From: an uncultured Gammaproteobacteria bacterium
Lineage (GTDB): Bacteria > Patescibacteriota > Microgenomatia > UBA10105 > UBA927
Assembly: GCA_964621305.1 (NCBI GenBank)
Contig: CAZUOM010000007.1
Location: forward strand, 5,422-69,421
Reading direction: 5' to 3'
Length of the DNA stretch: 64,000 bases
Of this stretch, positions 11,758 through 27,419 are shown one piece after another. Every line of letters starts with the position of its first letter. Within the stretch, counting starts at the first letter, position 1. The position numbers were made by a program, and so were the translations under genes. Below the pieces are notes generated by a model. That model was not told where the DNA came from. It saw only the letters and a list, made by a program, of their open reading frames with translations, and did not search any database.

Positions 11758-13245
11758 ATCATTTGGCCCGTCTTGTTTATTCCAAAGAATATAACCAATG
11801 TTGTTTTTGGTCAGAAACTCTTGGGCTTGACCTTCCTTCATGAATCCAGAGTAAAAATCAAAAACCTCTTTAACTTTGCGATCGTAATCGTAGGTTAGGG
11901 TTCTATGTGCTGAATAGGTAGTAAGACCCGTGATAACCGGTACAAAAAATTCCAAATTATTTGTAGCCAAAACCACTCGATAGTCCTGCTTGTCTTTAAG
12001 GGAGGCCAACCCTTTATAAATGTCTTTATTTAAATAATTGAGCGGTGATGGAAGGTAATAAGAGGAAATTTTTTCTTTTAACTCTATTGCCAGGGGCGGC
12101 AGCTGTAGAAGAAAAAATCCTGCGAGTATTCCCGCGGCAACCCAAGCACGTAAGTTTTTTTTAAACAAGTTTCCAATAGCAATAACACCGAGATAGCTCA
12201 TTGCTCCAAGAAATACATATGCTGGAGGCTGTAAAAAGCGAAACACCGGCAGCTTAAAGAGAGCGGGAAGTGTAGAAAAATAAATTAGTATTGGAGCAAA
12301 AGCAAATAGACCGCCAAAAATTCTAAGTGGTGATTTTACTGAAAAAAAGGATTTTAATCCAACAAAGACTAGTGGCACTACGGCTCCCATCGAAAGAAGG
12401 AGAGTTAACGGCGCAACCGGAGCAAAACTAGTTTCCCATGAGCGCATCCACTGATAGAAAAAATGGGAAAAAGCCTGTTTCTCATGGATGACAATAGGAA
12501 GAGCAGTTGCCAAACTAAATAAAAGGGGAGTAAATAATTTTAGATTACCAAAATATACTAACCCTAAAAATATTACCAATGTATCGACTAGGAAATAAAC
12601 TGGAGCAATAATAAATAGAAACGTGAATGATAAAACTATTAAAACAGTCCATTTCCAAACAGGGGACTGGATAAATTGACTATATGTGTAGATAACTAGT
12701 AGCGAGAGAATATTTTGGGCGATCAAATGAGAAACTCCACCCAGACGGTTAAAAGCTGTTGTGTACGCATAAAAATAGGTTATGGGAGTTATTGCCGGCG
12801 GATTTGTTGATATGGTAAAAAAATTTGTACTCACCAGCGCAATTAGGAGACTAATTATGGCTCTCACCTTATTGTTTAGGAATAATGCTTGCAGTACTAA
12901 ATACATAAGGATAATGTAAAGGAAGCTCAAAATAACAACGCTAGCATCATAAACAAGCCAGGGGTATAGACCTGTAAGGCCAACAATTTTTCCGAGTATT
13001 ATGTTGTACCACCAAATCAAAGTCTGAGGGATAGCCTCGGTTGTAAATGAATTGCCAGTGAGCCACGCGCCCATTGCGCCCTGAGTTAAATGTGAAAGAT
13101 AAAAAAAGTAGTCCTCATACCAATGGGTGATTCCGATGTAGATTGTATTTACCGGCTGTTGTATCTTATAGACGATAAGCGCTAGGGAGTTAAGCATGGT
13201 GAATATTAGTGAGATAATCAAAACCAGAATCATAGATAGAGTCAT
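11683..13245 (-). CDS. Polytopic membrane protein of the YfhO-distant paralog family
   Basis: The N-terminus (THWYEDYFFYLSHLTQGAMGAWL) is a clear paralog of the ORF at 31594-33102. The C-terminal family domain is VVLATNNLEFFVPVITGLTTYSAH. Confidence 0.6.
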   Translation of the reverse strand: MTLSMILVLIISLIFTMLNSLALIVYKIQQPVNTIYIGITHWYEDYFFYLSHLTQGAMGAWLTGNSFTTEAIPQTLIWWYNIILGKIVGLTGLYPWLVYDASVVILSFLYIILMYLVLQALFLNNKVRAIISLLIALVSTNFFTISTNPPAITPITYFYAYTTAFNRLGGVSHLIAQNILSLLVIYTYSQFIQSPVWKWTVLIVLSFTFLFIIAPVYFLVDTLVIFLGLVYFGNLKLFTPLLFSLATALPIVIHEKQAFSHFFYQWMRSWETSFAPVAPLTLLLSMGAVVPLVFVGLKSFFSVKSPLRIFGGLFAFAPILIYFSTLPALFKLPVFRFLQPPAYVFLGAMSYLGVIAIGNLFKKNLRAWVAAGILAGFFLLQLPPLAIELKEKISSYYLPSPLNYLNKDIYKGLASLKDKQDYRVVLATNNLEFFVPVITGLTTYSAHRTLTYDYDRKVKEVFDFYSGFMKEGQAQEFLTKNNIGYILWNKQDGPNDLNRFYPFLEVFHENPGLFIFVPKK

Positions 13246-13248
13246 TAT

Positions 13249-15921
13249 ATGAGATATTCAAAGCTTATTGCTCTTTGTTCTTATGCGGTCATCGTCGTTA
13301 TTGTTTTTTCTCCTATTCTTTTTCCGCCGGCAGGTATGTTGTTATTCGGCAGTGATATCCACAGATCCTATCATTTTTTCCGGCAACTATTTCATGACTC
13401 TATTAGTACAGGACAATTTCCGTGGTGGAATCCGTACCTTTTTTCCGGAGAGCCACTAATCGCTAACCCCTCGGTTGCATTCTGGTACCCATTCAACTGG
13501 CTGTTTGCAGTTCTTCCGTACAGATTTGTTTACTCGTGGATTATTCCGATTCATATTTTTATTGCAATGACGGGAATGTACGTTTTTAGTTCAAAATTCA
13601 AAATTCAAAATTCAAAATTAGAAGAAAAGGTAGAAACACCATTTGATTTTGGTGCTTTTATTGCCGGTTTAATCTTTGGATTAAGTGGGTATTTCATGGG
13701 AAGGATTTGGGAAGGACATGTGGAGCTAATTCTTGCGGCAAGCTGGATGCCGTGGGTTATATTTACAAATGTCCAATGCCAAATGTCCAATGCCAAATGG
13801 AAAACACAATGTGTTATCGCAGCAGTTGTGTTTGCCATACAGCTTTATGCCGGGTATCACACCATTGCCTTATTTACACTAGAAGCGGTGTTAATTGTTA
13901 CATTGTTACACTGTTACATTGTTAAAAACATTAGGCCGCTTTTGCCGGCGATACTCTCTATAATCATTGGGTTAGGTTTGGCTGGACTTCAGATTATTCC
14001 CTCTCAGGAGTTTTTTAGTCGAAGCATTCGGACGTATGAACTTCCTTATTCATGGGCTGTCTTCGGTTCATACACGGTTGAAAACCTCAAGCAGATTTTT
14101 CAGCCGTTTATTCTGGGTGGGCCAGAGAGCTACAGCGGTCCAAGTCCCAATTTCGGTGAAATGGCGGCATACATCGGTGTTGTCCCGTTGGTGCTTGCTC
14201 TTCTTGGTATTGTGTGGGCAATAAAGCGCCGCGCGTGGATTTCAATTGCCATGATGGTTATTGCACTTTTTGGGTTATGGATTTCATTCGGTTGGAATGC
14301 TCCCGTGGATCTGAATAAAATCCTTTGGGACAGTGTCCCTACATATAAGTATCTGCGCATTCCGTCGCGGCACCTCATTCTTTTTGTTTTCGGTATGAGC
14401 TTCCTCGCCGGCGTCGGCCTTAGCTTCGCAAGGAGAGTCCTTGCGAAGCTAATTATTTCTCTGGTTATTGTTGTTGATCTGGTGTGGTTTGCTAAAACGT
14501 TTGTTACTCTTGCGCCCGATCCTTCCACACGGCACAGTAAAGAGCTTGTTGGTTATCTGCAAAAAAATTTGGGACTGGCGAGAATTTTGCCGAACTTTAA
14601 TGTCGGGATGGGAACGCGAGACGCTCTCGATTTCGATGCAGCAATGGGGTATAAATTTTTTTCCGCTTCCGGTTACGACCCGTCGATTCTGCGTAATTAC
14701 TACGAATTTGCGGCAGCCGCAGGGAAAATAGAAAACCCGGATGTCCAGCGAAGTGACGTTCAAATTCCATATCTAGTTCCCCAGTCTAGATACACTGACT
14801 TTCTTAATATCAAATATATTTTTGTTCCGTCGTGGTTTGACTCAGTTGCGGGATCATCAAAATTTTCTCCGGTGCTGGCAGAAAATATAAAAGATTTCTG
14901 GAAACTCTATGAAAATAAAAACATCTTTCCTCGGTTCTTTCTTGCGCCGTCGCTTGTAGTTTTCCCGACTCGAGACGGTGTTGCCCGGGCAATAAGAAAC
15001 GAGGATTATAATCCATCGGAGACAATATTGGTTGAAAGTTCAAGTATCAAAAATCAAAGTTTTTCACCAAGCTGTTTAGAAAAAAACCTTCCTCCTCCCG
15101 AAGTGCTTTCCTATTCTTACAATCGGATCGAGCTACTTACAAGTTCCTCATGTAATGCCTTTCTGGCAACTAGTGAGGTGATGTATCCCGGCTGGAGTGC
15201 AACTATTGACGGGAAAAAAACAGAGATTTTCGAGGGAAACCTTGCCTTTCGAACGCTCTGGGTGCCGGCGGGGGAACACAACATTGTTTTACAATATCAA
15301 CCCTGGATTTTTGTCGTAGGTTTTTTCGTGAGCATTGCGACAGTGGCAGGGTGTTTGATTTGGACCAAAAAGTCGGCACACAGTGTATTGGTGGTTCTGG
15401 ATCGGGACGGAACACTTATCAGAAACGAAGGATTTATTGGACGTGGAGACAAATGGATGAGTGAACTTGTCATTAATGCGCCTGTAGTGTGTTTTCTTTC
15501 TTATATACAATCCAAATATAAAACGATGATGATAGTTGTTAGCAATCAATCGGGCGTGGCCAGAGGGTATTTTGACGAAAAGCGAATCCGTGAGGTCAAC
15601 GAAGCAATCAATGAGCTTTTGAAAAAACAAGGCATTACCATAGATGGTTGGCAGTTTTGTCCGGATGTGGATGCGGTCTACGCGAAGGCTCGGCCCGAAA
15701 TTTTTTGGAACAAGCAGTACGTGAAAACGGCGACGAAACGAAAACCAGCAACCAAAATGGTTGACGACGCGCTTGGGCAACTTGGCAAAAAGATCGGAGA
15801 TTTTGACACGACGATTGTTTTAGGCAATAGCGAAGATGACGCGGAACTTGCCCGGGTCCTTGGCGCTGTCTGGATTGATGTCCGTGGGGCTAGCTATGAG
15901 AAGCTTGTTGCGTATCTATGA
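13249..15921 (+). CDS. YfhO-family membrane protein fused to a C-terminal GmhB-like HAD-IIIA phosphatase domain
   Basis: The N-terminal ~690 aa form a YfhO domain (HRSYHFFRQLF...FPWWNPYLFSGEPLIANPS). The C-terminus carries DRDGTLI, VVSNQSGVARGYF and ..CPD.., typical of D,D-heptose-1,7-bisphosphate / histidinol phosphatase HADs. The gene contains three short tandem repeat tracts. Confidence 0.8.
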   Translation: MRYSKLIALCSYAVIVVIVFSPILFPPAGMLLFGSDIHRSYHFFRQLFHDSISTGQFPWWNPYLFSGEPLIANPSVAFWYPFNWLFAVLPYRFVYSWIIPIHIFIAMTGMYVFSSKFKIQNSKLEEKVETPFDFGAFIAGLIFGLSGYFMGRIWEGHVELILAASWMPWVIFTNVQCQMSNAKWKTQCVIAAVVFAIQLYAGYHTIALFTLEAVLIVTLLHCYIVKNIRPLLPAILSIIIGLGLAGLQIIPSQEFFSRSIRTYELPYSWAVFGSYTVENLKQIFQPFILGGPESYSGPSPNFGEMAAYIGVVPLVLALLGIVWAIKRRAWISIAMMVIALFGLWISFGWNAPVDLNKILWDSVPTYKYLRIPSRHLILFVFGMSFLAGVGLSFARRVLAKLIISLVIVVDLVWFAKTFVTLAPDPSTRHSKELVGYLQKNLGLARILPNFNVGMGTRDALDFDAAMGYKFFSASGYDPSILRNYYEFAAAAGKIENPDVQRSDVQIPYLVPQSRYTDFLNIKYIFVPSWFDSVAGSSKFSPVLAENIKDFWKLYENKNIFPRFFLAPSLVVFPTRDGVARAIRNEDYNPSETILVESSSIKNQSFSPSCLEKNLPPPEVLSYSYNRIELLTSSSCNAFLATSEVMYPGWSATIDGKKTEIFEGNLAFRTLWVPAGEHNIVLQYQPWIFVVGFFVSIATVAGCLIWTKKSAHSVLVVLDRDGTLIRNEGFIGRGDKWMSELVINAPVVCFLSYIQSKYKTMMIVVSNQSGVARGYFDEKRIREVNEAINELLKKQGITIDGWQFCPDVDAVYAKARPEIFWNKQYVKTATKRKPATKMVDDALGQLGKKIGDFDTTIVLGNSEDDAELARVLGAVWIDVRGASYEKLVAYL
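13591..13618. repeat. (TCAAAAT)x4 heptanucleotide tandem repeat inside the YfhO-HAD gene
   Basis: Read directly from the sequence: ttcaaaattcaaaattcaaaatta. Confidence 0.9.
13768..13801. repeat. 14-nt unit (AAATGTCCAATGCC) x2.4, built from two imperfect heptamers, inside the YfhO-HAD gene
   Basis: Read directly from the sequence: aaatgtccaatgccaaatgtccaatgccaaatgg. Confidence 0.9.
13894..13925. repeat. (ATTGTTAC)x4 octanucleotide tandem repeat inside the YfhO-HAD gene
   Basis: Read directly from the sequence: attgttacattgttacactgttacattgttaa. Confidence 0.85.
15337..15921 (+). other. HAD-IIIA (GmhB/histidinol-phosphatase-like) phosphatase domain at the C-terminus of the YfhO fusion
   Basis: Motif I is DRDGT, motif II is SNQSG, and the Zn-site-like region is QFCPD. 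The domain follows the last TM helix, so it is predicted to be cytoplasmic. Confidence 0.7.
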
Positions 15922-18107
15922 AACTCCTCTTTCCGTTTTTGGCCTACGCAGTCGTCGTTCTTTTTGTATTTGATAAGGCATTGTATCCGAGTCAGAACGA
16001 AGTTATCTTCGGCCCGGATATCTGGCGATACCACTATTTTCAGCGTCCGTTCCTGGGCGAGTCGTTTCGAAGTGGCATCGTCCCATGGTGGAACCCGTAT
16101 ATCATGGGCGGTCAGCCATATCTGGAGCAGCCGCAGATTACGACGTGGTATTTACCAAACCTACTCTTTACGATCTTGCCAGCAAACAGGGCCATTTCTT
16201 GGTACTTGGCCCTTCATATTTTCTGGGCGATGGCGGGGATATACTTATTCATTTCAAATTTCAAATTTCAAATTTCAAATTTAGCTGCGTGGGCGGCAGG
16301 GATTGCATTTGGTCTGTCGGGGTATTTTGCTGCACGGATCTACGCCGGACACATTGACATAATTGCGGCATCAAGTTGGTTGCCGTGGGTGATCGCTTCG
16401 GTTGTCAGTTGTCAGGCGTCAGTTGTCAGTAGAAAAAGAAATTGTGTTATTACGGCAATATTTTTTGCCATGATGCTGTTGGCCGGGCATCAGATGGTAG
16501 CCGTGTACACGGTTGAGGCAATTGGGGTAGCGGCATTGGTTTATGCAGTTGTCCAACGGTCGCTCCGGCCACTTGTGATTTCAACCGTTTCCATCGCATT
16601 GGGTTTGGGCCTTGCGGCAATTCAGATTCTCCCCAATCATCAGCTCATTGCCAACAGCATCCGGACGATTCAACTGCCGGAAGCATGGTCCGTCATCGCC
16701 ACCCCAACCGCCGCGCACTTTCTTGAGTTTATCGACCCAACGTTCTTCTACGACCGACTGCCTGATGTAGGCTTGGGACACGAACACGTCGGCTACATCG
16801 GGAAAGTGCCTTTGTTGTTTGCAATCACCACAATCCTCTTTTTCTTTCTCCGGCGGAAAAAATCTGTTGAAATTTTGATCCTTATCATCCTGTCAATATT
16901 CAGCTTGTGGGTGTGGCTCGGACCAAACGCTCCGGTTGATATGTTTGCCGTCATGCGAAAAATCCTGCCGCTCTATGGACAGATCCGGATCCCGTCCCGG
17001 CATATTGTGTTGTTTATTTTGGCGGCAAGTGCCTTGTTTGGCATCGGGATGAGCAGGGTAAAAAACACCGTCGTCAGGCTGCTGCTTTGTGCGCTGGTGC
17101 TTCTTGATCTTATTCCGTTTGCGCGGGCAAATATCCATTTGGGTCAGATACCGGAAACACGGGAAGATGGGGAATTGGTCGCATTGCTTGCGGGTGATGA
17201 GGGATTATACCGGTTCCTGCCGGATTTTTACCATGGGCAACCGTTGCGGGACGCGTTGGAGTTTGATGCTCCGATAACCAAGCGCATATTCTCCGTTTCC
17301 GGCTACGAAACGCCGCCACTGCGAAACTATTGGGAGTTTTTGTTGGCAGTCAACAACCTGGATATTGCAAAAAACCTAGATTATATTGAAACGACACCAC
17401 CGTTTATAAATATTACTTCACCGTATCTAAATTTTCTTAACGTCAAATACATTCTTACTCCCACCGGGAGTGATTCTTTAGATGCATACCCTCGTCAATT
17501 TTCCCAAATAAAAGAGAATAAAGATCGTGGATATCGGGTTTATGAAAATAAAGAGGTTTTGCCGAGATTTTATTTTGTGCAAAATGCGGTTGTTGCTGCG
17601 CGGGCTACCATTGACGAAGCCATACGCGGGGGGAGCGGCGATCCCGGGACGATGGTCTATTTGGAACAGGAAACGATGCCTATCCCACGGCCGTGTTCGC
17701 AGACCACGACCCCAACAGTATCCGTAACAACCTATCAATCCGACCGGATTCTGTTGCAAATATCCAATCCGTGCGATTCGTATCTGGTTTCATCAGAAGT
17801 CATGTATCCCGGGTGGATGGCAACCATTGACGGGAAGGAAACAAAAATTGCGGTAGGCAATCTCGCGTTCCGGACGATCTTCGTGCCGGCTGGAGACCAT
17901 ATAGTCCAAATGCAGTATCGCCCCCGCATCGTGTACCTCGGTGCGCTCGTAAGTTTGGTTAGTCTTGTTGTTTTTTTCTGGTTGATCTATGATGACGGTC
18001 ATGGAATCGCAGTCAGGAAAAGTTTGCACACTTCGTCAGCTGGGCACAATCACCCAGCGTCTGAAGAAAGCCGGAAAAAAGATTGTTCTTTGCCATGGAG
18101 TGTTTGA
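15918..18107 (+). CDS. YfhO-family membrane protein (third tandem paralog)
   Basis: It carries the signature IWRYHYFQRPF...GIVPWWNPYIMGGQPYLEQPQITTWYLPN. It contains heptamer repeat tracts at 16254-16281 and 16401-16430. Its 3' end overlaps the next gene by about 118 nt. Confidence 0.8.
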   Translation: MKLLFPFLAYAVVVLFVFDKALYPSQNEVIFGPDIWRYHYFQRPFLGESFRSGIVPWWNPYIMGGQPYLEQPQITTWYLPNLLFTILPANRAISWYLALHIFWAMAGIYLFISNFKFQISNLAAWAAGIAFGLSGYFAARIYAGHIDIIAASSWLPWVIASVVSCQASVVSRKRNCVITAIFFAMMLLAGHQMVAVYTVEAIGVAALVYAVVQRSLRPLVISTVSIALGLGLAAIQILPNHQLIANSIRTIQLPEAWSVIATPTAAHFLEFIDPTFFYDRLPDVGLGHEHVGYIGKVPLLFAITTILFFFLRRKKSVEILILIILSIFSLWVWLGPNAPVDMFAVMRKILPLYGQIRIPSRHIVLFILAASALFGIGMSRVKNTVVRLLLCALVLLDLIPFARANIHLGQIPETREDGELVALLAGDEGLYRFLPDFYHGQPLRDALEFDAPITKRIFSVSGYETPPLRNYWEFLLAVNNLDIAKNLDYIETTPPFINITSPYLNFLNVKYILTPTGSDSLDAYPRQFSQIKENKDRGYRVYENKEVLPRFYFVQNAVVAARATIDEAIRGGSGDPGTMVYLEQETMPIPRPCSQTTTPTVSVTTYQSDRILLQISNPCDSYLVSSEVMYPGWMATIDGKETKIAVGNLAFRTIFVPAGDHIVQMQYRPRIVYLGALVSLVSLVVFFWLIYDDGHGIAVRKSLHTSSAGHNHPASEESRKKDCSLPWSV
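16254..16281. repeat. (TCAAATT)x4, i.e. a TTCAAAT heptamer tract, inside the third YfhO gene
   Basis: Read directly from the sequence: atttcaaatttcaaatttcaaatttcaaattt. It encodes ISNFKFQISN. Confidence 0.9.
16401..16430. repeat. (GTTGTCA)x4 heptamer tract (one imperfect copy) inside the third YfhO gene
   Basis: Read directly from the sequence: gttgtcagttgtcaggcgtcagttgtcagt. Confidence 0.85.
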
Positions 18108-19536
18108 TCTAGTACACCCCGGACACATCCGCTATTTTTCCTCTGCCAAAAAACACGGCGACATTCTCGTGGTAACACTCACGGCTGACCGGTTCGTCAG
18201 AAAAGGGCCGGGGCGGCCGGTATTTAACGAAAAACTCCGCGCAGAGTTTCTGGCAGCCATAGAGCTTGTTGACTATATCGCAGTTAGCAACAGTTACAGC
18301 GCAACGGTTGCCATCCAGGCTATCCGGCCAGACGTTTATGTGAAAGGCCCGGACTACAAATATCGAAAGCCCAACCCTTCTGTCTCCAGAAATCTCGGGA
18401 ATGAGGAAGCGGCGGTTGTCTCCGGCGGGGGAAAGCTCGTGTTCACCGATGACGTATTATTTTCCTCTTCTCATCTCATCAATGAATATATGGACGTATA
18501 CGATAAAAAAACGAAAGGTTTTTTGGATCAGCTTAAAACAACATATAGCGACGAATATTTGATTAAAAAACTCTGTTCAGTCAAACCGATAAAGGTTTTG
18601 ATTATAGGGGATGCGATTGTTGATCAGTATGTCTACTCTAATCCATTAGGAAAATCTTACAAGGAGCCGATTGTGGTCCACAAGTATTTAGAAGAAGAGA
18701 CATATGCAGGTGGGGCACTAGCAACGGCTAATCACGTAGCTGCGCTGTCGGATCACGTGAGGCTCGTGACCCTATTGGGTTCAAAACATTCCCACGAGCC
18801 GTTCATACGAAGACATTTACGAGTGGGCATCGTACCGAAATTTTTTTATCGAAGCGGCGAGTCAACCATTGTGAAGCGCCGCTATATTGATCAATATACT
18901 AACCAGAAGCTTTTTCAAATTAGTTATATCAACGATGAAGACATATCATTAGCACTTCAACGATCGGTTATGACATATTTAAAAAGGGAAATTCCCAAAC
19001 ACGATGTTGTGATAGTCAATGACTTTGGACACGGTTTTTTAACAACAAATATCATCGGATTAGTGTGCAAAGCATCCAAGTTTCTGTGTCTAAATGTGCA
19101 GGCAAATAGTGCCAACTACGGATTTCATATCATTACGAAATATCCGAGAGCGGATTTTGTCTGCATCGATGACCTAGAATTACGACTGGCTACCCACGAT
19201 CGCTCTGGTGAACAAGGAGCACTCATGAAACGGGTCTACGATAGGCTCCATTGTCAAACTATATTGGTGACCCGCGGGCCGTATGGGAGTACGATCTACT
19301 CTAAAAAAAGAGGGTGCCATGATGTACCATCTTTTGCCGGTTCCATTGTCGACCGCATGGGTGCTGGTGACGCACTTTTTTCTATCGTTTCGCCCTTGGC
19401 TTATTTGGGTGTTGCACAAAAAGCGATTGCCTTTATAGGCAACGTTGCTGCTGCTTTAAAAATTCAGACCGTGGGCAATAGAACACCGATTGATTTTATG
19501 GAGCTGACGAAATTTATTACCAGACTGCTCAAATAA
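17989..19536 (+). CDS. Bifunctional sugar-phosphate nucleotidyltransferase (cytidylyltransferase-like, RfaE domain II type) and PfkB-family sugar kinase. It is HldE-like but with the domain order reversed.
   Basis: The N-terminus shows the (H/T)xGH nucleotidyltransferase motif (IVLCHGVFDLVHPGHIRYF). The C-terminus shows a PfkB kinase signature (VLIIGDAIVDQY... GAGDALFS). Confidence 0.75.
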   Translation: MMTVMESQSGKVCTLRQLGTITQRLKKAGKKIVLCHGVFDLVHPGHIRYFSSAKKHGDILVVTLTADRFVRKGPGRPVFNEKLRAEFLAAIELVDYIAVSNSYSATVAIQAIRPDVYVKGPDYKYRKPNPSVSRNLGNEEAAVVSGGGKLVFTDDVLFSSSHLINEYMDVYDKKTKGFLDQLKTTYSDEYLIKKLCSVKPIKVLIIGDAIVDQYVYSNPLGKSYKEPIVVHKYLEEETYAGGALATANHVAALSDHVRLVTLLGSKHSHEPFIRRHLRVGIVPKFFYRSGESTIVKRRYIDQYTNQKLFQISYINDEDISLALQRSVMTYLKREIPKHDVVIVNDFGHGFLTTNIIGLVCKASKFLCLNVQANSANYGFHIITKYPRADFVCIDDLELRLATHDRSGEQGALMKRVYDRLHCQTILVTRGPYGSTIYSKKRGCHDVPSFAGSIVDRMGAGDALFSIVSPLAYLGVAQKAIAFIGNVAAALKIQTVGNRTPIDFMELTKFITRLLK

Positions 19537-20516
19537 TGATGAAAAACGTATTAGTTACTGGCGGGGCAGGATATATAGGAGCGTTATTGGTGCCACAATT
19601 ACTATCCCGCGGGTACTACGTAACAGTTCTTGATTTATTCCTTTATGGAGACGCGTTGGCAAAACACAAGAATCTTACTTTGGTAAAAGGCGATATCAGT
19701 GATAGGATGGTCATCGGGGAGACCTTACCCGGCGTTGACTGCGTCATTCACCTAGCGTGCATCTCTAACGATCCGAGCTTTGAGTTGAATCCGAAATTAG
19801 GAAAGTCAGTTAATCATGACGCAACCATTCAGCTTATTGACTTAGCCAAAACGGCAAGGGTTAAGCGTTTTATATATGCTTCAAGTTCCAGCGTCTACGG
19901 CGTCAAAAAAGAAAAAGATGTAACAGAAGATTTGCCTCTTGCGCCGCTGACGGATTATTCAAAGTATAAAGCGTTGTGTGAGGAGTATGTTTTGAAAAGT
20001 CAATCAAAAAATTTTACGACAGTGGTTTTGCGACCTGCTACAGTATGTGGGTTTTCTCCCCGGATGCGGCTTGATTTAACCGTGAACATGCTTACGATAC
20101 ATGCATTGGTGAATAAAAAAATTATCGTTTTTGGCGGGTCGCAACTCCGGCCTAACATTCATATAGCTGACATGTGCCGGGCATATGAGTTATTTTTGGA
20201 AGCTCCCGGTGAGTCGATTTCAGGAAAAATATTTAACGTAGGATATCAAAATCTTACTGTTATGGAAATTGCAAAAATGGTAAAACGAGTGCTTGCGGAT
20301 CGTTCGATAAAAATTGAAGTAAAACCAACCAACGATTTGCGCTCCTATCACATTTCTTCTGAAAAAATCAAAAAAGAACTGGGGTTTGTGCCGAAACACA
20401 CGGTTGAGGAAGCAATCATGGACATAAAGAAAGCATACGATCGCGGCTTTCTGCCGGACGCATTGACTGATAAACGATACTACAATATCCAGATGATGAA
20501 GTCAGTAACACTTTAA
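19536..20516 (+). CDS. NAD(P)-dependent sugar epimerase/dehydratase (extended SDR). It could be an HldD-like heptose 6-epimerase or a UDP-sugar epimerase.
   Basis: It has the Rossmann motif VLVTGGAGYIGALL, and YxxxK lies inside YSKYKALCEEY. Confidence 0.8.
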   Translation: MMKNVLVTGGAGYIGALLVPQLLSRGYYVTVLDLFLYGDALAKHKNLTLVKGDISDRMVIGETLPGVDCVIHLACISNDPSFELNPKLGKSVNHDATIQLIDLAKTARVKRFIYASSSSVYGVKKEKDVTEDLPLAPLTDYSKYKALCEEYVLKSQSKNFTTVVLRPATVCGFSPRMRLDLTVNMLTIHALVNKKIIVFGGSQLRPNIHIADMCRAYELFLEAPGESISGKIFNVGYQNLTVMEIAKMVKRVLADRSIKIEVKPTNDLRSYHISSEKIKKELGFVPKHTVEEAIMDIKKAYDRGFLPDALTDKRYYNIQMMKSVTL

Positions 20517-21463
20517 TGGAGAAAAAATTGCTTTATCAGATGTTGCGGATCCGCATGGTCGAGGAGGCGATTGCTGCCGAGTACGCGAAACAAGAGATGC
20601 GCTGCCCCACCCATCTCTGTATTGGACAAGAGGCAGTAAGCGTTGGCGTTTGTTCGGCGCTCAACAAAGAGGATGCGGTATTTTCCATGCACCGCAGCCA
20701 CGGGCACTACCTTGCGCGGGGAGGGAGTCTTCCTGCGATGATTGCTGAGCTCTACGGCAAAGCCACAGGTTGCAGCGGCGGAATCGGCGGTTCCATGCAC
20801 CTCATAGACAGATCAGTGAATTTTTTGGGAGCGACACCAATCGTTGCCGGATCTATCCCTGTTGCGGTTGGAGTTGCGCTAGCTCGTTTGATGCAAAATA
20901 AGCCGGGTGTCGCTGTAGCATTTTTTGGCGATGCGGCGCTAGAGGAGGGAACTGCCCATGAAAGCATGAATTATGCTTCCTTGAAAAAATTACCGGTTCT
21001 ATTTGTCTGCGAAAACAATCTTTATTCGACATTAACGCCTCTTGCATTGAGGCAGCCAAGGAGACCTATTTTTCAGGTGGCAAAGGGACATGAAACTGCC
21101 TCTTTTCAAGATGACGGCAATGATGTTTTAGCTGTTTGGCGCGTTGCGCAAAAAGCGCTTAAATTTATTCGATCCGGCAAAGGCCCAGTATTTCTGGAGC
21201 TTCTCACATATAGGTATCTTGAGCATTGCGGTCCAAACCCCGACCCGGATTCATTTCGGTCTATCAAAGAAGTCGCAGCATGGAGGAAAAAAGATCCGGT
21301 CGAGACGTTTAAACGATATTGTTTGCAGAAAAAAATAGTGCGTAAGGACGAAATACAAACTATGAAAAACGATATTTCAAAAGAAATTGAAAAAGCATTT
21401 ATTTTTGCAAAAAGTAGTCAGTTTTTAAACCTCAAACGCCTGGAGGATTTTGTCTATGCGTAA
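20516..21463 (+). CDS. TPP-dependent 2-oxoacid dehydrogenase E1 component, alpha subunit
   Basis: The sequence LYQMLRIRMVEEAIAAEY...HLCIGQEAVSVGV...HRSHGHYLARGG...GGIGGSMH is typical of PDH/acetoin-DH E1 alpha. Confidence 0.8.
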   Translation: MEKKLLYQMLRIRMVEEAIAAEYAKQEMRCPTHLCIGQEAVSVGVCSALNKEDAVFSMHRSHGHYLARGGSLPAMIAELYGKATGCSGGIGGSMHLIDRSVNFLGATPIVAGSIPVAVGVALARLMQNKPGVAVAFFGDAALEEGTAHESMNYASLKKLPVLFVCENNLYSTLTPLALRQPRRPIFQVAKGHETASFQDDGNDVLAVWRVAQKALKFIRSGKGPVFLELLTYRYLEHCGPNPDPDSFRSIKEVAAWRKKDPVETFKRYCLQKKIVRKDEIQTMKNDISKEIEKAFIFAKSSQFLNLKRLEDFVYA

Positions 21464-22529
21464 TTACAGAACCATTTCCTACGCTCAAGCTATCAAGGAT
21501 GCTCAGGAGCTAGCCCTCTCTCGTGACCCGTCGGTTTTTGTGATTGGCGAGGGAGTGCCGGATCCAAAAGGGATATTTGGGACTACAGTGGGACTGGCGG
21601 AAAAATTTCCGGCAAGAGTCTTAGACATGCCGGTTTCTGAAAATGGCATGACGGGTATTTGCATCGGAGCGGCTATTTCCGGTATGCGGCCGATCTTAGT
21701 TCACCAACGAATGGATTTTACGCTGTACTCTTTTGATCAAATAGTCAACAACGCCGCCAAGTGGTATTTTATGTTCGGCGGACAAGAGCCCGTACCGATG
21801 GTTATACGAATGATAATCGGCCGCGGTTGGGGACCAGGGCCGCAGCATTCGCAGAGTCTTCAAGCGCTCTTCGGTCATATTCCGGGATTAAAAGTTGTGA
21901 TGCCGGCAACAGTTTTTGATGCCAAAGGGCTCTTTATTTCGGCAATTGAAGACAACAACCCTGTAATTTTTATTGAGCATCGGTGGCTTCACAATTTGAC
22001 TGGCAACGTTCCAAAAGGATATTACACTGTGCCAATCGGTAAAGCCAAAGTTATTAAAAAAGGAACAGATATCACAATTGTTGCCACATCGTTTATGCTA
22101 ATTGAAACTTTGCGGATTGGTGCTGTTCTGGAGGAAAACGGGGTTTCAGCTGAAATTGTTGACGTTCGATCTATACGACCGTTTGATAGTAAAACTATTC
22201 TAACATCGGTTGCAAAAACCAGGCGACTCATCGTTTCTGATACTGGCTGGAAAACATTAGGGTTTGCCGCAGAGGTTTTGGCGCAGGTTACTGAAAGTGG
22301 CATTACGCTTAAGAATGCGGCTCAGCGCATTACCATCCCGGATATGCCTACCCCAACAAGCTGGAAACTGGCAGCGGACTATTATCCGACGAGCGTTGAC
22401 ATTTTGCGCGCCGGTTTACTAATGTGTGAAAAGACTACCAAAACAACGAACCAAATTGTCAAAGCATACAAAACAGCGATTAAAGGTTTTCCTGATCAGC
22501 CGGACCCGACCTTTACAGGACCGTTTTGA
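21450..22529 (+). CDS. TPP-dependent 2-oxoacid dehydrogenase E1 component, beta subunit (transketolase-like)
   Basis: The sequence ISYAQAIKDAQELALSRDPSVFVIGEGV...VLDMPVSENGMTGICIGAAISGMRPI matches E1 beta. It overlaps the alpha gene by 14 nt. Confidence 0.8.
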   Translation: MSMRNYRTISYAQAIKDAQELALSRDPSVFVIGEGVPDPKGIFGTTVGLAEKFPARVLDMPVSENGMTGICIGAAISGMRPILVHQRMDFTLYSFDQIVNNAAKWYFMFGGQEPVPMVIRMIIGRGWGPGPQHSQSLQALFGHIPGLKVVMPATVFDAKGLFISAIEDNNPVIFIEHRWLHNLTGNVPKGYYTVPIGKAKVIKKGTDITIVATSFMLIETLRIGAVLEENGVSAEIVDVRSIRPFDSKTILTSVAKTRRLIVSDTGWKTLGFAAEVLAQVTESGITLKNAAQRITIPDMPTPTSWKLAADYYPTSVDILRAGLLMCEKTTKTTNQIVKAYKTAIKGFPDQPDPTFTGPF

Positions 22530-23641
22530 GTATGAAAGTTCCATACGTATATTTGCGAAAACAGTTTGCCAAGCCAGGAAGCTATCTGCGAGATCTAGAG
22601 AAAATTGCCAAACGGGGTGATTTTACACTAGGGAGGGAGGTCAGACTATTTGAAAAGCGTGCAGCCTCTCTTCTGGGCGCCAAATTTGCAATTGGGGTTG
22701 GAAACGGCACCGACGCATTATATTTATCGCTCAAAGCTTTAGGTATTGGTCCGGACGACGAAGTAATAACTGCTCCCAACAGTTTTGTTGCAACGGCAGC
22801 GGCAATTGCTCTCACCGGCGCGAGGCCGGTGTTCGCGGATGTTCTCGACGATTACACGATCGACCCAGCGCTTATAGAAAAAGCCGTTACTAAAAAAAGT
22901 AAAATAATAATTCCGGTTCACCTGACCGGCCAGCCCTGCGACATGGGGTCAATCATGGCGATTGCCCAAAAGTACAACCTTTTTGTCGTTGAAGACGCAG
23001 CGCAAGCTTTTTTGGCTAAATACGATGGGAAATATTTGGGCACATTAGGTACGACCGGAGCTTTTAGTTTTCACCCTTTGAAAATACTCCACGTATGGGG
23101 AGACGGAGGGCTTATCGTCACAAATGACGAGAAAGTAGCTGTGAAACTAAGGCTCTGGCGCAATCACGGATTGAAAACTAGGAACGAAGTTGAGTTTTTT
23201 GCCAACAACAGTAGGCTTGATACCATCCACGCGGCAATTGCCCTGCGCATGCTTGGGCAGTTGCCGGGCATTGTGAAAAAACGCCAGCAGATTGCGGCAG
23301 AATACGACCGCTTGATTAAAGATCTTGCGCCACACGTTCGTCTGCCGGCCCGCACAATTTCCCAAAAACCAATTGCGCATACCTTCACCAACTACGTTGT
23401 AATGTGCGCAAGGCGCGACGAGCTTATTGCGTTTCTTGCCAAAAAAGGCATTGAAGCGGTAGTCCAGTATCCGACACCCATACACCTGCTGAAAGCAGCC
23501 CGCTATTTGGGATATAAAAAGGGAGATTTCCCCGTCTGCGAGAAGCAGGCCGATACCATCGTCACTTTCCCGTGTAACCAGTACATGACTACAAGAGATG
23601 TAGAGCATGTGGCCCATGCGATAAAAGAATTTTATGACTAA
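22526..23641 (+). CDS. DegT/DnrJ/EryC1-family PLP-dependent sugar aminotransferase
   Basis: Motifs include GVGNGTDALYLSLKALGIGPDDEVITAPNSFVATA and FSFHPLKILHVWGDGG. Confidence 0.85.
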   Translation: MSMKVPYVYLRKQFAKPGSYLRDLEKIAKRGDFTLGREVRLFEKRAASLLGAKFAIGVGNGTDALYLSLKALGIGPDDEVITAPNSFVATAAAIALTGARPVFADVLDDYTIDPALIEKAVTKKSKIIIPVHLTGQPCDMGSIMAIAQKYNLFVVEDAAQAFLAKYDGKYLGTLGTTGAFSFHPLKILHVWGDGGLIVTNDEKVAVKLRLWRNHGLKTRNEVEFFANNSRLDTIHAAIALRMLGQLPGIVKKRQQIAAEYDRLIKDLAPHVRLPARTISQKPIAHTFTNYVVMCARRDELIAFLAKKGIEAVVQYPTPIHLLKAARYLGYKKGDFPVCEKQADTIVTFPCNQYMTTRDVEHVAHAIKEFYD

Positions 23642-24335
23642 CGCAGTTACAGTAATCATGCCAGCGTTTAATGAGGAAAAAAATCTTGCTACGGCTGTTG
23701 CTAGCGCAACCAGAATTCTAAAAAAGACAGTTGAAGACCGCGAAATTATCATCATCGATGACGGATCAAAAGATGCGACTGGTCACGTTGCAGAAATTCT
23801 CGCCAAAAAAGATTCTCATATCCGGCTGATCCACAACAAAAAAAACATGGGATTAGGTAGCGGCCTGCGGCAGGGCATCAAGGCCGCACGCAAAACATAT
23901 GTGACACTATATCCGAGCGACAACGAAATGGATGCACAATCATTTCGGGATCTCGTTACTGCACGACACAAAGCAGACCTCGTAAGCTCATACACCGCCA
24001 ACCCCGAGGATCGGCCGTGGGTGCGACGGCTGATATCATCGTCGTTTGTGTTTTTGATCAATATATTGTTTGGATTGCGGCTTAGGTACTATACCGGGCC
24101 GTTTATCGCCAAAACCAAGTTATTGCAGAAAATTAAACTCGCTTCCGACGGCGTGACTCTTCTTGCGGAACTCAAAATCAGACTGCTCGCCCGGGGAGCG
24201 AGTTTTTCAGAAATTCCGTTTTTTTTTCGACAGAGACGATATGGAAAGGCAACGCTTTTTCGTTGGAAAACTGTACATCAAACTTTATTTACCCTATCCG
24301 TTCTTTTCCATGATAAACTTCTGGGGCGGCTATGA
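23634..24335 (+). CDS. Family 2 glycosyltransferase (DPM1-like)
   Basis: Motifs include VIMPAFNEEKNL and IIIIDDGSKDATG. A T9 homopolymer lies inside the gene at 24219-24227. Confidence 0.8.
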   Translation: MTNAVTVIMPAFNEEKNLATAVASATRILKKTVEDREIIIIDDGSKDATGHVAEILAKKDSHIRLIHNKKNMGLGSGLRQGIKAARKTYVTLYPSDNEMDAQSFRDLVTARHKADLVSSYTANPEDRPWVRRLISSSFVFLINILFGLRLRYYTGPFIAKTKLLQKIKLASDGVTLLAELKIRLLARGASFSEIPFFFRQRRYGKATLFRWKTVHQTLFTLSVLFHDKLLGRL

Positions 24336-24814
24336 TAAGTCTCATTTTGTCACTAGCGGTTTTTACGGTATTTTTCTTTCTTCATGTCATCATCCACCGC
24401 GTTTCTGCGGGTTTCGGGTTGGTGCAAATCGTGTATGCAACAGTTTTTCTGGCCGGGTTTATAATTCTGGTTTTGGTAACTAGGACTATGCCACTGCCTG
24501 TTGCTGCCGCGTTTTTATATATTTTGTTGGTCGCAAGCCACTTTTTATTTTTCTTCAGTTTTTATTTTGAAGGCGAAAGTCCGTCAGTTGGTCTCATGAC
24601 AATCTTAAAAGTTCGCGGCCCATTAAAAGAAAGTCAGCTTCACGAGTATTTTTCAGAAGAGGCATTATTTGGTAATCGGTTGAAGATGCTTGCTGATGCC
24701 GGATATATAGAGATAAGAGATGACCGCTACATAATAACTAAGAAAGGAAAAATCTTTGCAGGGTTGTTTGAAAATTACAGAAGACTTCTCCGTTGGGATA
24801 AAGGTGGATTATGA
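24332..24814 (+). CDS. Small membrane protein: 3-4 TM helices plus a ~70-aa soluble C-terminal domain. It may be a GtrA-like flippase accessory.
   Basis: It has hydrophobic N-terminal helices and a C-terminal tail ...YIEIRDDRYIITKKGK. It lies between the GT2 and GT-C genes and overlaps neighbours by 4 bp. Confidence 0.35.
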   Translation: MISLILSLAVFTVFFFLHVIIHRVSAGFGLVQIVYATVFLAGFIILVLVTRTMPLPVAAAFLYILLVASHFLFFFSFYFEGESPSVGLMTILKVRGPLKESQLHEYFSEEALFGNRLKMLADAGYIEIRDDRYIITKKGKIFAGLFENYRRLLRWDKGGL

Positions 24815-25320
24815 ATCTCGTGGATTTTCAAATTGTGTCAACGGCAGCGGTTGCATTTTTGGTATTTGTCGCCTGCCAAATATTGGTGTTTCGGAGAATT
24901 GATCATCGTATGGCTGTTGTCTGGTTTATCCGTATATTAGCCTCGGTCGGAATTTTACTTTTCACTGCAAACGCCCTGTACGGGTCGCTGTTTGCCGGAT
25001 TTTTTGCATTTATTCTGTACATGGTTGCCAGCTGCGCGTACTTTATGGGTGTATTTGGACTTCTTGCTACGTCCGTACGCATCCGACTGCTTTGTGAAGT
25101 TGCTGCGGCAGGAGAGCAGGGGGTTACCTGGGATCAACTACTGCGAAAGTATAACAAACGGATGATCATTAAAAAGCGCCTGGAGCGGTTTGTAGCAAGC
25201 GGAGAGGTGGTTTTGCGAGATCGGAAATATTACATAAAAGAAGGGCTTACTTTTTTTCGCCTGCCGACTATCCTACTATCCCTGATGAAGACTATATGCG
25301 GAGTTTCAATAAGTAAATAA
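24811..25320 (+). CDS. Small membrane protein, tandem paralog of the 24332-24814 ORF
   Basis: The architecture is similar, with 4 TM helices and a C-terminal tail ...VVLRDRKYYIKEGL. Confidence 0.35.
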   Translation: MNLVDFQIVSTAAVAFLVFVACQILVFRRIDHRMAVVWFIRILASVGILLFTANALYGSLFAGFFAFILYMVASCAYFMGVFGLLATSVRIRLLCEVAAAGEQGVTWDQLLRKYNKRMIIKKRLERFVASGEVVLRDRKYYIKEGLTFFRLPTILLSLMKTICGVSISK

Positions 25321-25326: not shown

Positions 25327-26490
25327 ATGAAAAAAAATAAACGTTTTTTTATTATCCTTTTTGTTTTAGGATTTATTTTTCGGTTGTTTCTAGCCTTACA
25401 AGCCTACGATACTCTAGTTTTTGATGCCAAAGGATATTCTGATTTTGCGATTGACTTCCTCAATGGAAAGCCGGCAATAGACTGCTGTGCAAAAAATGTT
25501 GGGTACGGCGCATTTCTTGCTCTTGTCTATAAACTTTTTGGTGTTGAAAATATAGTCGCCGTTAGACTCGTACACATCATTATTGATCTTGTAACCGCGG
25601 GCATGATATATAAAATTGCCCTGCGCATTTTTTCTAAAAAGGCAGCAATATTTTCCATCATACTGTATCTTTTCAACCCCTTTACTAGTGCATTTACCGG
25701 ACTTGTGATGGCAGAGACGGTTTCTATATTTCTTGTTGTTGCTCTCTTATTTTTCCTGACTAGAGCCTCGTTCCCGAGCGACAAAAAGTTGTGGTTTGTA
25801 TTTGGGATAGCGGCAGGGGCGCTCCTTTTTACTAGACATTCGTTTTACTATTTTCTTCCCTTATTATTAGTTGTACTGACTATGCTGGTAGGCAACATTC
25901 GATTTTTGCCGATTGCGGGCGCTGGGTTTTTGCTTGCATCTTCTTATTCACTGATTGTTTATTATAAAACTTTTGGTAAACTGTCTCTTGTCCCTCCGTA
26001 TAACCTGAAATACGAAATTATTTATCTAAATTTCTGGCGGTGGCACTACCCGGAGGTGGAATTTAAGGGAGAACTTGCCGAGTATCGACAGGTTGTCCAG
26101 GGATATTGGAATACGCCTCTGGAGGGCAAAGCCAGCCATTCGGAAAAATACAAGCAGCTGCTTTTATCACGGCTTCCAAAAGAGTGGCCAACTTTTATTT
26201 CTAACATCGCCGTCAATATCATTTGGCTTTGGGATAAAGATCATCTTTATACATATGTGGACCCCTTTTATCCAGCCGACCGTTGGCCCTTGCGGATTAT
26301 AAATGTCGCGCTCATATTGCTTTGGGCAGTCGGGATGATCAAAGGGGCGCGCAAAGAGCCGGTGTTTCTTTTTTCTGTACTTTTATTTTTCTATATTACG
26401 TTTCTTTTTTCGCTTCTTTCAAATGAGAGCAGACACACGTTGGTATATTATCCTATATTGAGCTTATGGGCGGGGAGGGCGTTTGCATGA
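25327..26490 (+). CDS. ArnT/PMT-like GT-C membrane glycosyltransferase (GT39/GT83-like)
   Basis: There is an extracytoplasmic loop motif after TM1 (FDAKGYSDFAI), and the conserved YLFNPFT is shared with the gene at 28860-30095. About 11 TM helices are predicted. Confidence 0.55.
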   Translation: MKKNKRFFIILFVLGFIFRLFLALQAYDTLVFDAKGYSDFAIDFLNGKPAIDCCAKNVGYGAFLALVYKLFGVENIVAVRLVHIIIDLVTAGMIYKIALRIFSKKAAIFSIILYLFNPFTSAFTGLVMAETVSIFLVVALLFFLTRASFPSDKKLWFVFGIAAGALLFTRHSFYYFLPLLLVVLTMLVGNIRFLPIAGAGFLLASSYSLIVYYKTFGKLSLVPPYNLKYEIIYLNFWRWHYPEVEFKGELAEYRQVVQGYWNTPLEGKASHSEKYKQLLLSRLPKEWPTFISNIAVNIIWLWDKDHLYTYVDPFYPADRWPLRIINVALILLWAVGMIKGARKEPVFLFSVLLFFYITFLFSLLSNESRHTLVYYPILSLWAGRAFA

Positions 26491-27419
26491 ACGCTGTCGT
26501 TACCGGAGCCGCCGGATTTATCGGCAGCCACTTGGTGGAGCGGCTTTTGGCTGATAGGCACCGCGTGACTGGCCTAGACGTGGCAGGAAAGCATAGCGTA
26601 GACCTCTCACAAGAAAATAATTTGGAAAAGTACTTCCGGCGGGTCGATTGGGTGTTTCACTTGGCCGGCTATTCCGACATCGTCCCGTCGATCCTTCGTC
26701 CCGCCGAGTACACCCAAGCTAACGTCACGGCAACTGTCAATGTGCTCGAGGCCTGCCGCAAGGCAAAGGTGGCTAAGTTCATATATTTAGCCTCATCAAC
26801 CTGCTACGGCAAGAATCCTCCGGTTCCAACTCCAGAAACGGCACCCATTGCGACGCAGTTTCCCTACGCGTTAACTAAGTACATCGGAGAGCTCTATGCA
26901 CTTCACTGGGCGAAAGTTTATAAATTACCGGTTATCAGTTTGCGACTTTTTAATGTCTACGGTCCCAGGAGCCGTGCATCAGGCGAATACGGCCCTGTTT
27001 TTAGCACGTTCATGGCCCAGAAACTTCATGGAAAACCTCTGACGGTTGTAGGAGACGGCAGTCAGAAGAGGGATTTTGTTTTTGTAGCTGATGTAGTCGA
27101 GGCGATTATTCTTGCCGCTAAATCAAAAATTGTTGGCGAGATTTTTAATGTAGGCACCGGAAAGCCTCACACGGTTAATGAACTTGTTAAACTTCTTGGT
27201 GGTCCGGTTGTTCATATTCCCAAGCGCCCCGGGGAACCCTCGGCAACGCATGCAGATATTACCAAAATTAAAAAATTTCTCGGTTGGGGGCCGAAAGTTT
27301 CGTTTGAGGAAGGAGTAAAAATAGTCCTTGAGCACATCAATGACTGGAAAGATGCTCCTGTCTGGACACCGGCGACCATCAAAAAGGCGACTAAAGAGTG
27401 GTTTAAATTTTTGACCTGA
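26487..27419 (+). CDS. NAD-dependent epimerase/dehydratase (extended SDR, UDP-sugar 4-epimerase / decarboxylase-like)
   Basis: The sequence VVTGAAGFIGSHLVERLL is present, and YxxxK lies in YALTKYIGELY. The start is called at MNAVV, overlapping the previous stop by 4 bp. Confidence 0.85.
   Translation: MNAVVTGAAGFIGSHLVERLLADRHRVTGLDVAGKHSVDLSQENNLEKYFRRVDWVFHLAGYSDIVPSILRPAEYTQANVTATVNVLEACRKAKVAKFIYLASSTCYGKNPPVPTPETAPIATQFPYALTKYIGELYALHWAKVYKLPVISLRLFNVYGPRSRASGEYGPVFSTFMAQKLHGKPLTVVGDGSQKRDFVFVADVVEAIILAAKSKIVGEIFNVGTGKPHTVNELVKLLGGPVVHIPKRPGEPSATHADITKIKKFLGWGPKVSFEEGVKIVLEHINDWKDAPVWTPATIKKATKEWFKFLT

Follow-up and report, generated by a model that had tools for sequence, protein, structure and literature searches.

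A nucleotidyltransferase-kinase with reversed HldE domain order and its candidate NDP-heptose cassette in a candidate phyla radiation genome

A 64,000-nucleotide stretch of an uncultured bacterial genome (GenBank assembly GCA_964621305.1, contig CAZUOM010000007.1, positions 5,422 to 69,421; GTDB class Microgenomatia of the Patescibacteriota), here called the window, encodes a bifunctional protein in which a nucleotidyltransferase domain precedes a PfkB kinase domain (the NT-kinase). The preliminary description of this DNA had proposed an HldE-like enzyme with reversed domain order, followed by a short-chain dehydrogenase/reductase (SDR) epimerase, as a possible module for activating a heptose or another sugar 1-phosphate. 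From profile matches, predicted structures and related loci, we consider it rather probable that the NT-kinase is a paralogous nucleoside diphosphate (NDP)-heptose, or near-heptose, synthase feeding an Arn-like surface glycosylation island that works through a lipid carrier. For the family as a whole, a heptose-type reading draws support from the affinities of four genes, namely the kinase, the nucleotidyltransferase, an isomerase neighbour and a Cj1427-like SDR (SDR1).

The window is part of a contig (C7) of a genome of 1,064,929 bases in 14 contigs, rated 100% complete and 0.31% contaminated, and the nearest protein-database relatives of the NT-kinase are titled Candidatus Gottesmanbacteria, which places the organism in the candidate phyla radiation. 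The models used were those of Pfam and NCBIfam with their curated cut-offs, and 51 open reading frames (ORFs) of the window were scanned with Pfam.

Reversed-order family

The order of the domains, opposite to that of Escherichia coli HldE, was confirmed by the residue ranges of the Pfam and NCBIfam matches. In the 515-aa protein, the Pfam match to CTP_transf_like (55.9 bits; cut-off 21) covers residues 35-126 and that to PfkB (39.8 bits; cut-off 25.8) residues 202-501. The motifs quoted in the preliminary description are present as well: CHGVFDLVHPGH spans residues 35-46, with HPGH at residues 43-46, and GAGDALFS spans residues 458-465, with GAGD at residues 458-461. In an alignment of 19 family sequences, on which all statements of invariance are based, the HxGH, SS(S/T) and GAGD motifs are invariant; the invariant positions include H43, G45, H46, S159 and S160 in the nucleotidyltransferase domain and G458, A459, G460 and D461 in the kinase domain.

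The reversed order is no peculiarity of this one gene but the standard form of a large family. All of the 120 best database relatives carry both PF01467 and PF00294. An exhaustive phmmer search of 1.84 billion cluster representatives gave 20,168 matches at E ≤ 0.001, 8,394 at 1e-10 and 1,389 at 1e-30. Among the 150 matches listed, 133 were colinear with the query in a single stretch over nearly its whole length and 17 were shorter or split; in none of the 150 did the nucleotidyltransferase part follow the kinase within the stretch listed. When one genome per GTDB species was searched, relatives were found to be encoded in at least 587 of 599 candidate stretches; these loci were gathered with an alignment as the query (a single-protein query gave one locus). 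By record title, the best 80 loci (L045-L124) belong to Gottesmanbacteria, Omnitrophota, Planctomycetes, Elusimicrobia, Bacteroidetes, Chloroflexota, Chlamydiae, Nitrospinae, the Alpha-, Beta- and Gammaproteobacteria, one Nanoarchaeota metagenome-assembled genome and the cultured Aquitalea magnusonii DSM 25134 (L121). Databases name the proteins of this family generically, and the Protein Atlas holds generically named clusters of the same architecture.

All five proteobacterial carriers tested encode the reversed enzyme (104-120 bits) together with a canonical HldA/HldE kinase (350-416 bits; cut-off 345). This makes the reversed enzyme a paralogue with a role of its own, a specialised one that runs alongside the canonical pathway and does not replace it. 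Three architectures of heptose nucleotidyltransferases are given in the accessible text of two commentaries on Tang et al. 2024: nucleotidyltransferase alone, kinase-nucleotidyltransferase and isomerase-kinase-nucleotidyltransferase (PMC11461863; PMC11573728). The order nucleotidyltransferase-kinase is not among the three as listed in that text. Beyond these two commentaries, no study of a reversed HldE, of its cassette or of heptose in bacteria of the candidate phyla radiation (CPR) was found in the literature covered, which did not extend to the original Tang et al. paper and its supplements, where this order is possibly catalogued. Some members of the family are longer (P0103, P0117, P0122 and P0178; 668-764 aa). 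In P0117, a second HxGH nucleotidyltransferase start follows the first domain, giving the order nucleotidyltransferase-nucleotidyltransferase-kinase, and P0122 carries an N-terminal extension of about 190 aa.

To judge from conservation, the long start that yields 515 aa is the true one, because relatives align from about residues 6-11 and K11, K30, C35, H36 and G37 are invariant. The 478-aa database form (P0002) begins at V38, within the first strand of the fold; it is too short and loses conserved N-terminal residues. With the long start, the gene consequently overlaps the upstream YfhO ORF by 119 nt (17989-18107) in another frame. A frameshift fusion of that YfhO (15918-18107) with the enzyme, which the fusion of YfhO and HAD further upstream might suggest, was considered and rejected, since a TGA lies two codons before the ATG in the enzyme frame.

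Affinity of the two domains

The comparison with HldE-type profiles that the preliminary description had called for was run on NCBIfam, and both halves favoured the HldE domain models over TagD and ribokinase. The nucleotidyltransferase half scored 105.7 bits with rfaE_dom_II (TIGR02199) against 41.1 bits with TagD (TIGR01518), while the kinase half scored 125.8 bits with rfaE_dom_I (TIGR02198) against 24.6 bits, in a partial match, with ribokinase (TIGR02152); the next kinase family stood at about 25 bits. The cut-offs of TagD (165.4) and ribokinase (299.65) were both missed. In the sequence search of the PDB, the top matches were a putative cytidylyltransferase (5x9q, 59.9 bits) and Burkholderia HldA (4e84, 58.2 bits).

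An AlphaFold (AF2) model of the NT-kinase, built on the 19-sequence alignment, reached a mean predicted local distance difference test score (pLDDT) of 83.4 and a predicted template modelling (TM) score of 0.71. The seven best chains in a Foldseek search were all HldA (4e84/4e8w), with E-values of 2.7e-24 to 2.4e-22 and TM-scores to the target of 0.76-0.83. Sulfofructose kinase was the next family at 7.6e-16, a gap of eight orders of magnitude. The kinase domain, as modelled, is nearest to solved HldA.

E. coli HldE (sequence from NC_000913.3) is made of the same two domain families, and in separate alignments of the domains each of its halves matches the NT-kinase from end to end. The two proteins differ in an 8-residue insertion in the nucleotidyltransferase domain of the NT-kinase (within residues 125-135), in the replacement of DPKG of the HldE kinase by a conserved NVQANSANYGF, and in a stretch that reads FEDGCSTT in E. 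coli HldE and DDVLFSSS in the NT-kinase.

A candidate Cj1427-like dehydrogenase

The gene that follows the NT-kinase encodes SDR1, which had been labelled an SDR epimerase. Its product matches the Pfam Epimerase family (147.5 bits) and contains the motifs GGAGYIG and YSKYK. It is probably no epimerase, its nearest solved relative being, by a wide margin, Cj1427. A phmmer search of the PDB gave 162.8 bits for 6vo6 over residues 1-301 and 100.3 bits for the runner-up, and with the AlphaFold model of SDR1 (pLDDT 86.3) the top six Foldseek chains were all 6vo6/6vo8 (E 1.4e-28; TM 0.82-0.89). The titles of these entries name Cj1427, an NAD-dependent Campylobacter jejuni dehydrogenase whose structure was determined with GDP-D-glycero-D-manno-heptose. 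According to the accessible text of two papers, Cj1427 oxidises C4 of GDP-heptose, using 2-oxoglutarate (PMC10680097; PMC9978623). Sequence and model thus suggest that SDR1 is probably better labelled a C4-dehydrogenase than an epimerase, and this label fits the DegT aminotransferase encoded three genes downstream. As SDR1 is closest to Cj1427, a route through a 4-keto and then a 4-amino heptose appears likelier than epimerisation.

The stretch SPRMRLDL..VN is common to both proteins. SDR1 has ASSSSVYG where dehydratases carry an acidic pair. The HldD model (TIGR02197; cut-off 274.6) was reached neither by SDR1 (76.6 bits) nor by SDR2 (106.4 bits), a second SDR further downstream. The likeness to Cj1427 is nonetheless bounded, in that identity over the structural alignment is just 33-34% and the partner enzymes differ. 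A GHMP kinase and an HddC-type transferase produce the alpha-GDP-heptose on which Cj1427 acts, whereas an HldE-type route would yield a beta-linked NDP-heptose.

Gene neighbourhood in related loci

In the first nine loci, the SDR1 gene was in every case adjacent to or near the NT-kinase gene. A SIS_2 protein of about 205-238 aa is encoded directly after SDR1 in six related CPR loci and after the enzyme itself in L033; the best NCBIfam match of these SIS neighbours is gmhA, at 81-115 bits (cut-off 209). In L033, a distant member with about 30% identity, the order is enzyme, GmhA-like protein and GmhB-like HAD protein (TIGR00213, 119.4 bits; cut-off 149.6).

Neighbours were then counted by tblastn (E ≤ 1e-6, at least half of the query covered) in the best 80 of the at least 587 related loci. 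A GmhA-like SIS gene was present in 54 loci, in 36 of them within 300 nt, and the heptose reading is for this reason stronger for the family. Genes of the SDR2 type (≥44% identity) were found in 53 loci, 48 of them within 1200 nt, and those of the SDR1 type (≥44% identity) in 44. Thiamine enzymes occurred in 47 loci, as E1 alpha in 22 and as the N-terminal part of a transketolase in 27; 15 loci had an APH-like kinase and 21 a DegT protein (≥40% identity). For the 39 loci with full flanks, the counts were 30 for a thiamine enzyme, 29 for the SDR2 type, 26 for SIS and 25 for the SDR1 type.

The E1 alpha/beta pair and the split transketolase are nearly exclusive, occurring together in 2 of the 47 loci, which suggests one shared role in the cassette. 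That role could be two-carbon transfer onto a 4-keto sugar or the building of the sugar skeleton. In most of its 15 occurrences, the APH-family kinase goes with the transketolase type. Two more specific proposals for the thiamine enzyme were rejected. It does not, as a general rule, replace a missing housekeeping transketolase, for all nine related CPR genomes tested have a transketolase, in most cases one full-length gene and, close to the cluster, a second copy that is split; at L005, E1 and a split transketolase are both found close by. Nor does E1 seem to make a 1-deoxy-ketose that dispenses with the isomerase, since by hand count a SIS gene is present in 15 of the 22 E1-type loci and in 19 of the 25 with transketolase only, which is no difference. 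In Aquitalea magnusonii DSM 25134 (L121, 11515-16056), two radical-SAM proteins, one of them with a SPASM domain, flank E1 alpha/beta just after the NT-kinase, a pair that hints at further unusual sugar chemistry.

Operon and proposed pathway

The NT-kinase gene lies in a run of 13 genes (13249-28194) on a single strand, all intact and with ends touching or overlapping. Their order is two YfhO genes, NT-kinase, SDR1, E1 alpha, E1 beta, DegT, a family 2 glycosyltransferase (GT2), two small membrane proteins, PMT_2, SDR2 and an EEP-family protein (Table 1). The E1 of the operon is the sole E1 found in the genome, and a genome search found no E2. The GT2 gene and those for the two small membrane proteins recur together in related Gottesmanbacteria-type loci.

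Table 1. Features of the operon around the NT-kinase gene, with positions in the window.
Feature	Position	Strand	Basis
YfhO-like membrane glycosyltransferase with C-terminal HAD-IIIA (GmhB-like) domain (HAD part 15358-15918)	13249..15921	+	Pfam, NCBIfam, hydrophobicity
Second YfhO-like membrane protein, 3' end overlapping the NT-kinase gene by 119 nt	15918..18107	+	Pfam, sequence
NT-kinase, bifunctional protein, 515 aa	17989..19536	+	Pfam, NCBIfam, PDB sequence search, AF2 model, Foldseek
Nucleotidyltransferase domain, residues ~21-167	18049..18489	+	TIGR02199, 105.7 bits on residues 21-127; alignment with HldE domain II
PfkB kinase domain, residues ~197-509	18577..19515	+	TIGR02198, 125.8 bits on residues 197-509; end-to-end alignment with HldE domain I of E. 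coli
SDR1, Cj1427-like extended SDR, 326 aa, candidate NDP-heptose C4-dehydrogenase	19536..20516	+	phmmer against PDB, Foldseek
E1 alpha (20516-21463) and E1 beta (21450-22529), thiamine-diphosphate 2-oxo-acid decarboxylase	20516..22529	+	Pfam, NCBIfam, genome search
DegT/ArnB/PseC-type sugar aminotransferase	22526..23641	+	Pfam, 349.6 bits; PseC 244 and ArnB 194 bits, both below cut-off
GT2, candidate polyprenyl-phosphate sugar synthase	23634..24335	+	Pfam, NCBIfam
Two small three-segment membrane proteins	24332..24814, 24811..25320	+	Sequence
PMT_2-type (ArnT-like fold family) membrane glycosyltransferase	25327..26490	+	Pfam
SDR2, GalE-like extended SDR	26466..27419	+	Best PDB match UDP-glucose 4-epimerase 4zrm, 174.4 bits

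In the route proposed here, the C-terminal HldA-like PfkB kinase would phosphorylate the anomeric O1 of heptose 7-phosphate or of the phosphate of a closely similar higher sugar. The distal phosphate would then be removed by a GmhB-like HAD-IIIA phosphatase, for which the candidate in this genome is the C-terminal, putatively cytoplasmic, domain of the YfhO protein at 13249-15921, and the N-terminal HldC-like nucleotidyltransferase would couple the sugar 1-phosphate with a nucleoside triphosphate (NTP) to give the NDP-sugar. SDR1 may oxidise C4, as Cj1427 does on GDP-heptose, and the 4-keto sugar may be aminated by DegT, with a possible further change made by the E1 alpha/beta thiamine enzyme. 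GT2 would load the product on polyprenyl phosphate and, after flipping, the YfhO and PMT_2 transferases would attach it outside the cell.

By analogy, the operon appears to follow the logic of the Arn pathway (ArnA/B/C/E/F/T), which delivers 4-amino-4-deoxy-L-arabinose by way of a lipid carrier and with which the operon has in common a C4-oxidising SDR, a DegT/ArnB-type aminotransferase, a GT2, two small membrane proteins and a final PMT_2-type GT-C transferase. In the Arn pathway, however, the sugar comes from UDP-glucuronate, whereas here an HldE-like enzyme would supply it; there is no formyltransferase within the window (two relatives carry GNAT-formyltransferase fusions), the scores with the ArnB and ArnC models are far under their cut-offs and E1 alpha/beta has no Arn counterpart. 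Similar chemistry is described in the accessible text on septacidin, where C4 of a heptose is oxidised and then transaminated to a 4-amino heptose by the 4'-oxidase SepI and the aminotransferase SepG. SepI, though, is there an FAD-dependent GMC oxidase and no SDR, and it acts after the heptose has been joined to adenine, not on an NDP-sugar (PMC9978623).

The preliminary description had placed a GmhB-like phosphatase on the YfhO fusion two genes upstream of the NT-kinase, and the NCBIfam models agree on a GmhB-like HAD-IIIA domain there. The HAD domain (about residues 714-875 of that ORF) passes HAD-IIIA with 55-60.6 bits (cut-off 44.6) and remains below the GmhB models (60.2-65.2 of 178 and 45.2-50 of 149.6 bits); DRDGT and NQSGVARG are seen in its sequence. 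The last hydrophobic segment, residues 679-707, parts the HAD domain from the 420-678 loop and so puts it on the other side of the membrane from that loop, which would be the cytoplasmic side. Among the best relatives of the HAD domain in the class is a true GmhB (197.2 bits; cut-off 178) in genome G148, where its gene (L126, G148:C25) stands between those of HldC (197.2 bits; cut-off 181.5) and GmhA (219.5 bits; cut-off 209.45). Genome G196 (L129, G196:C58) encodes a 358-aa HldC-GmhB fusion. Canonical heptose genes above the NCBIfam cut-offs thus occur in other CPR genomes of the same class (G148 and G196). They are of note there, since CPR bacteria are generally held to lack lipopolysaccharide. 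The YfhO-HAD fusion was seen in none of the related loci read.

Alternative explanations

Several results weigh against the reading preferred here. The cut-offs of the HldE models were all missed (125.8 of 345 bits for TIGR02198, 105.7 of 181.5 for TIGR02199 and 172.5 of 521 for NF008454), while a stand-alone HldC of another CPR genome passes TIGR02199 (197.2 against 181.5). The accessible text of one commentary gives (F/L)XXGxSTT as the motif of heptose nucleotidyltransferases (PMC11573728); of this, the aligned stretch DDVLFSSS keeps only the Ser/Thr triplet. At position 5 of the motif, where Arg marks NTP promiscuity according to the text available from the two commentaries (PMC11461863; PMC11573728), the reversed family has Phe or Tyr throughout. 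By cut-offs, domain order and motif, the NT-kinase is not a member of HldE proper. No assay of any enzyme of the reversed family was found in the literature. Nor is a constant phosphatase partner apparent: a GmhB-like gene was found, with a single query, in just 5 of the 80 related loci, and a match to the HAD domain was found in just one (G135) of the eight other genomes of the class that encode a full-length enzyme, and there on a different contig. There is no support for an obligate pairing of HAD domain and enzyme.

The supply of the precursor is a puzzle. The preliminary description had reported no GmhA/SIS isomerase in the window, and none was found among the 51 ORFs scanned; a profile search of the whole genome likewise found no gmhA and no SIS_2, and tblastn of five cluster-type SIS proteins against the genome gave no match better than E 0.1. 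The only SIS proteins of the genome are a 596-aa protein with two SIS domains, probably GlmS, and a PGI/PMI-type isomerase of 357 aa on contig C5. No transketolase and no transaldolase were found in the genome either, so that known genes account neither for the making of sedoheptulose 7-phosphate nor for its isomerisation. Among 41 sampled genomes of the window's family, transketolase was missing in 14 and SIS_2 exceeded its cut-off in 3; the absences therefore look like traits of the lineage and not like assembly gaps, for which 14 contigs would leave room. The substrate may be scavenged, it may be formed by another isomerase or route, or a different sugar phosphate may be used here. In the preliminary description, the heptose interpretation was to be given up if the best profile matches were of the teichoic-acid type and the genome was without GmhA. 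The best matches are to HldE models and GmhA is indeed missing; with only one half of that pair found, the heptose reading is weakened for this genome, not refuted.

The same gaps lend some weight to an explanation that we regard as rather unlikely, in which the HldE-like fold and the chemistry of an anomeric kinase and a nucleotidyltransferase are retained and the substrate does not derive from sedoheptulose 7-phosphate. It might then be a hexose 6-phosphate such as mannose 6-phosphate, for which a PGI/PMI-type isomerase and neighbouring ORFs resembling phosphomannomutase and inositol monophosphatase (read from their translations alone) could be invoked, or an unusual ketose or aldose phosphate made by the cluster's thiamine enzyme (E1 alpha/beta, or in relatives an APH-like kinase with a split transketolase), whose two types are present in 47 of the 80 loci and almost never together. 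Scores of the family and of its SIS neighbours well under the equivalog cut-offs, as well as the coexistence with canonical HldA/HldE in all five proteobacteria, would also agree with it. Yet the best matches of four separate genes, for the kinase, the nucleotidyltransferase, SIS and SDR1, are to heptose-specific families, the SIS counts show no sign that E1 replaces the isomerase, and a transketolase is present in all nine related CPR genomes tested. The idea that the operon is the stranded remnant of a horizontally acquired cassette, which has lost its isomerase gene and is inactive or lives on precursors scavenged from a host or neighbours, is in our view improbable. The distribution of the enzyme is patchy, with full-length copies in 9 of the 301 class genomes sampled and in none of the 17 taken from the window's own family, relatives in that family often lack transketolase (14 of 41) and SIS_2 above the cut-off (38 of 41), and where six related CPR loci have a GmhA-like gene right after SDR1, SDR1 here abuts E1 alpha. 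Decay, on the other hand, would hardly have left the 13 genes intact and tightly packed on one strand, with every family-invariant column kept in the window's copy. A carrier of the same family (L005, genome G301, equated with G328 by identical match coordinates) has the same SIS-less gene order and also no SIS_2, which suggests a stable arrangement and not a fresh loss.

A teichoic-acid-type module, with a TagD-like cytidylyltransferase and a ribokinase-like kinase making CDP-glycerol or CDP-ribitol, is disfavoured and very improbable. TagD does belong to the same Pfam family and its structures gave a weak sequence match in the PDB (31.8 bits), and YfhO proteins are described as transferring sugars onto teichoic acids; against this stand the lower scores of TagD and ribokinase than of the two rfaE domain models, the lead of HldA in the fold search by eight orders of magnitude and the GmhA-like and Cj1427-like neighbours. 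The reading as an NDP-heptose or near-heptose synthase remains the one we prefer.

Implications

NDP-heptoses supply building blocks for the surface glycans of bacteria. They also potently trigger the vertebrate innate immune sensor ALPK1, as stated in the accessible text of both commentaries (PMC11461863; PMC11573728). The product of the reversed family may differ in nucleotide, stereochemistry or carbon skeleton, and if so the set of activated heptoses would be wider. The conserved thiamine enzyme points to two-carbon transfer, which is rare in primary glycan synthesis. An intact activation module without a known precursor route in a CPR genome would imply dependence on a host, or else an unrecognised isomerase and precursor route. 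The cultured carrier Aquitalea magnusonii DSM 25134 opens the family to experiment.

Taken together, these features allow a wider reading, which is tentative and, as a whole, doubtful. The reversed enzyme would be a fourth architecture of NDP-heptose synthase, and a cassette found across phyla would build an undescribed amino-heptose, its skeleton branched or extended by thiamine-dependent two-carbon transfer and its nucleotide maybe not ADP. In CPR bacteria, a lipid carrier would take the sugar out of the cell, where the many GT-C enzymes of the island would attach it to surface polymers or proteins. Just as tentatively, such a cassette would combine the nucleotidyltransferase-kinase with two SDRs, one GalE-like and the other a Cj1427-like C4-dehydrogenase, with an isomerase resembling GmhA, with one or two aminotransferases and with a thiamine enzyme, which would be either E1 alpha/beta or a split transketolase accompanied by an APH-like kinase.

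Other features of the window

Around the operon, the window holds five ORFs of 502-543 aa with 7-10 hydrophobic segments and no Pfam match (5725-8906, 11683-13245 and 31594-34579), four of which are mutually related. With three YfhO and three PMT_2-like proteins, these bring the large polytopic membrane proteins of the island to about 11; six GT2, three DegT, several methyltransferases and one carbamoyltransferase are also encoded there. Eight consecutive ORFs on the + strand at 46221-56700 (376-772 aa) have one hydrophobic segment each and no Pfam match at 1e-6. Most of them are paralogous, as in the case of 47401-48558 and 49711-52029 (53% identity); they may form a tandem family of surface proteins, secreted or anchored, that the glycosylation island possibly modifies. 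Just past the operon, a PIN-domain protein of 137 aa is encoded at 28450-28863, and L032 likewise has a PIN gene next to that of the enzyme.

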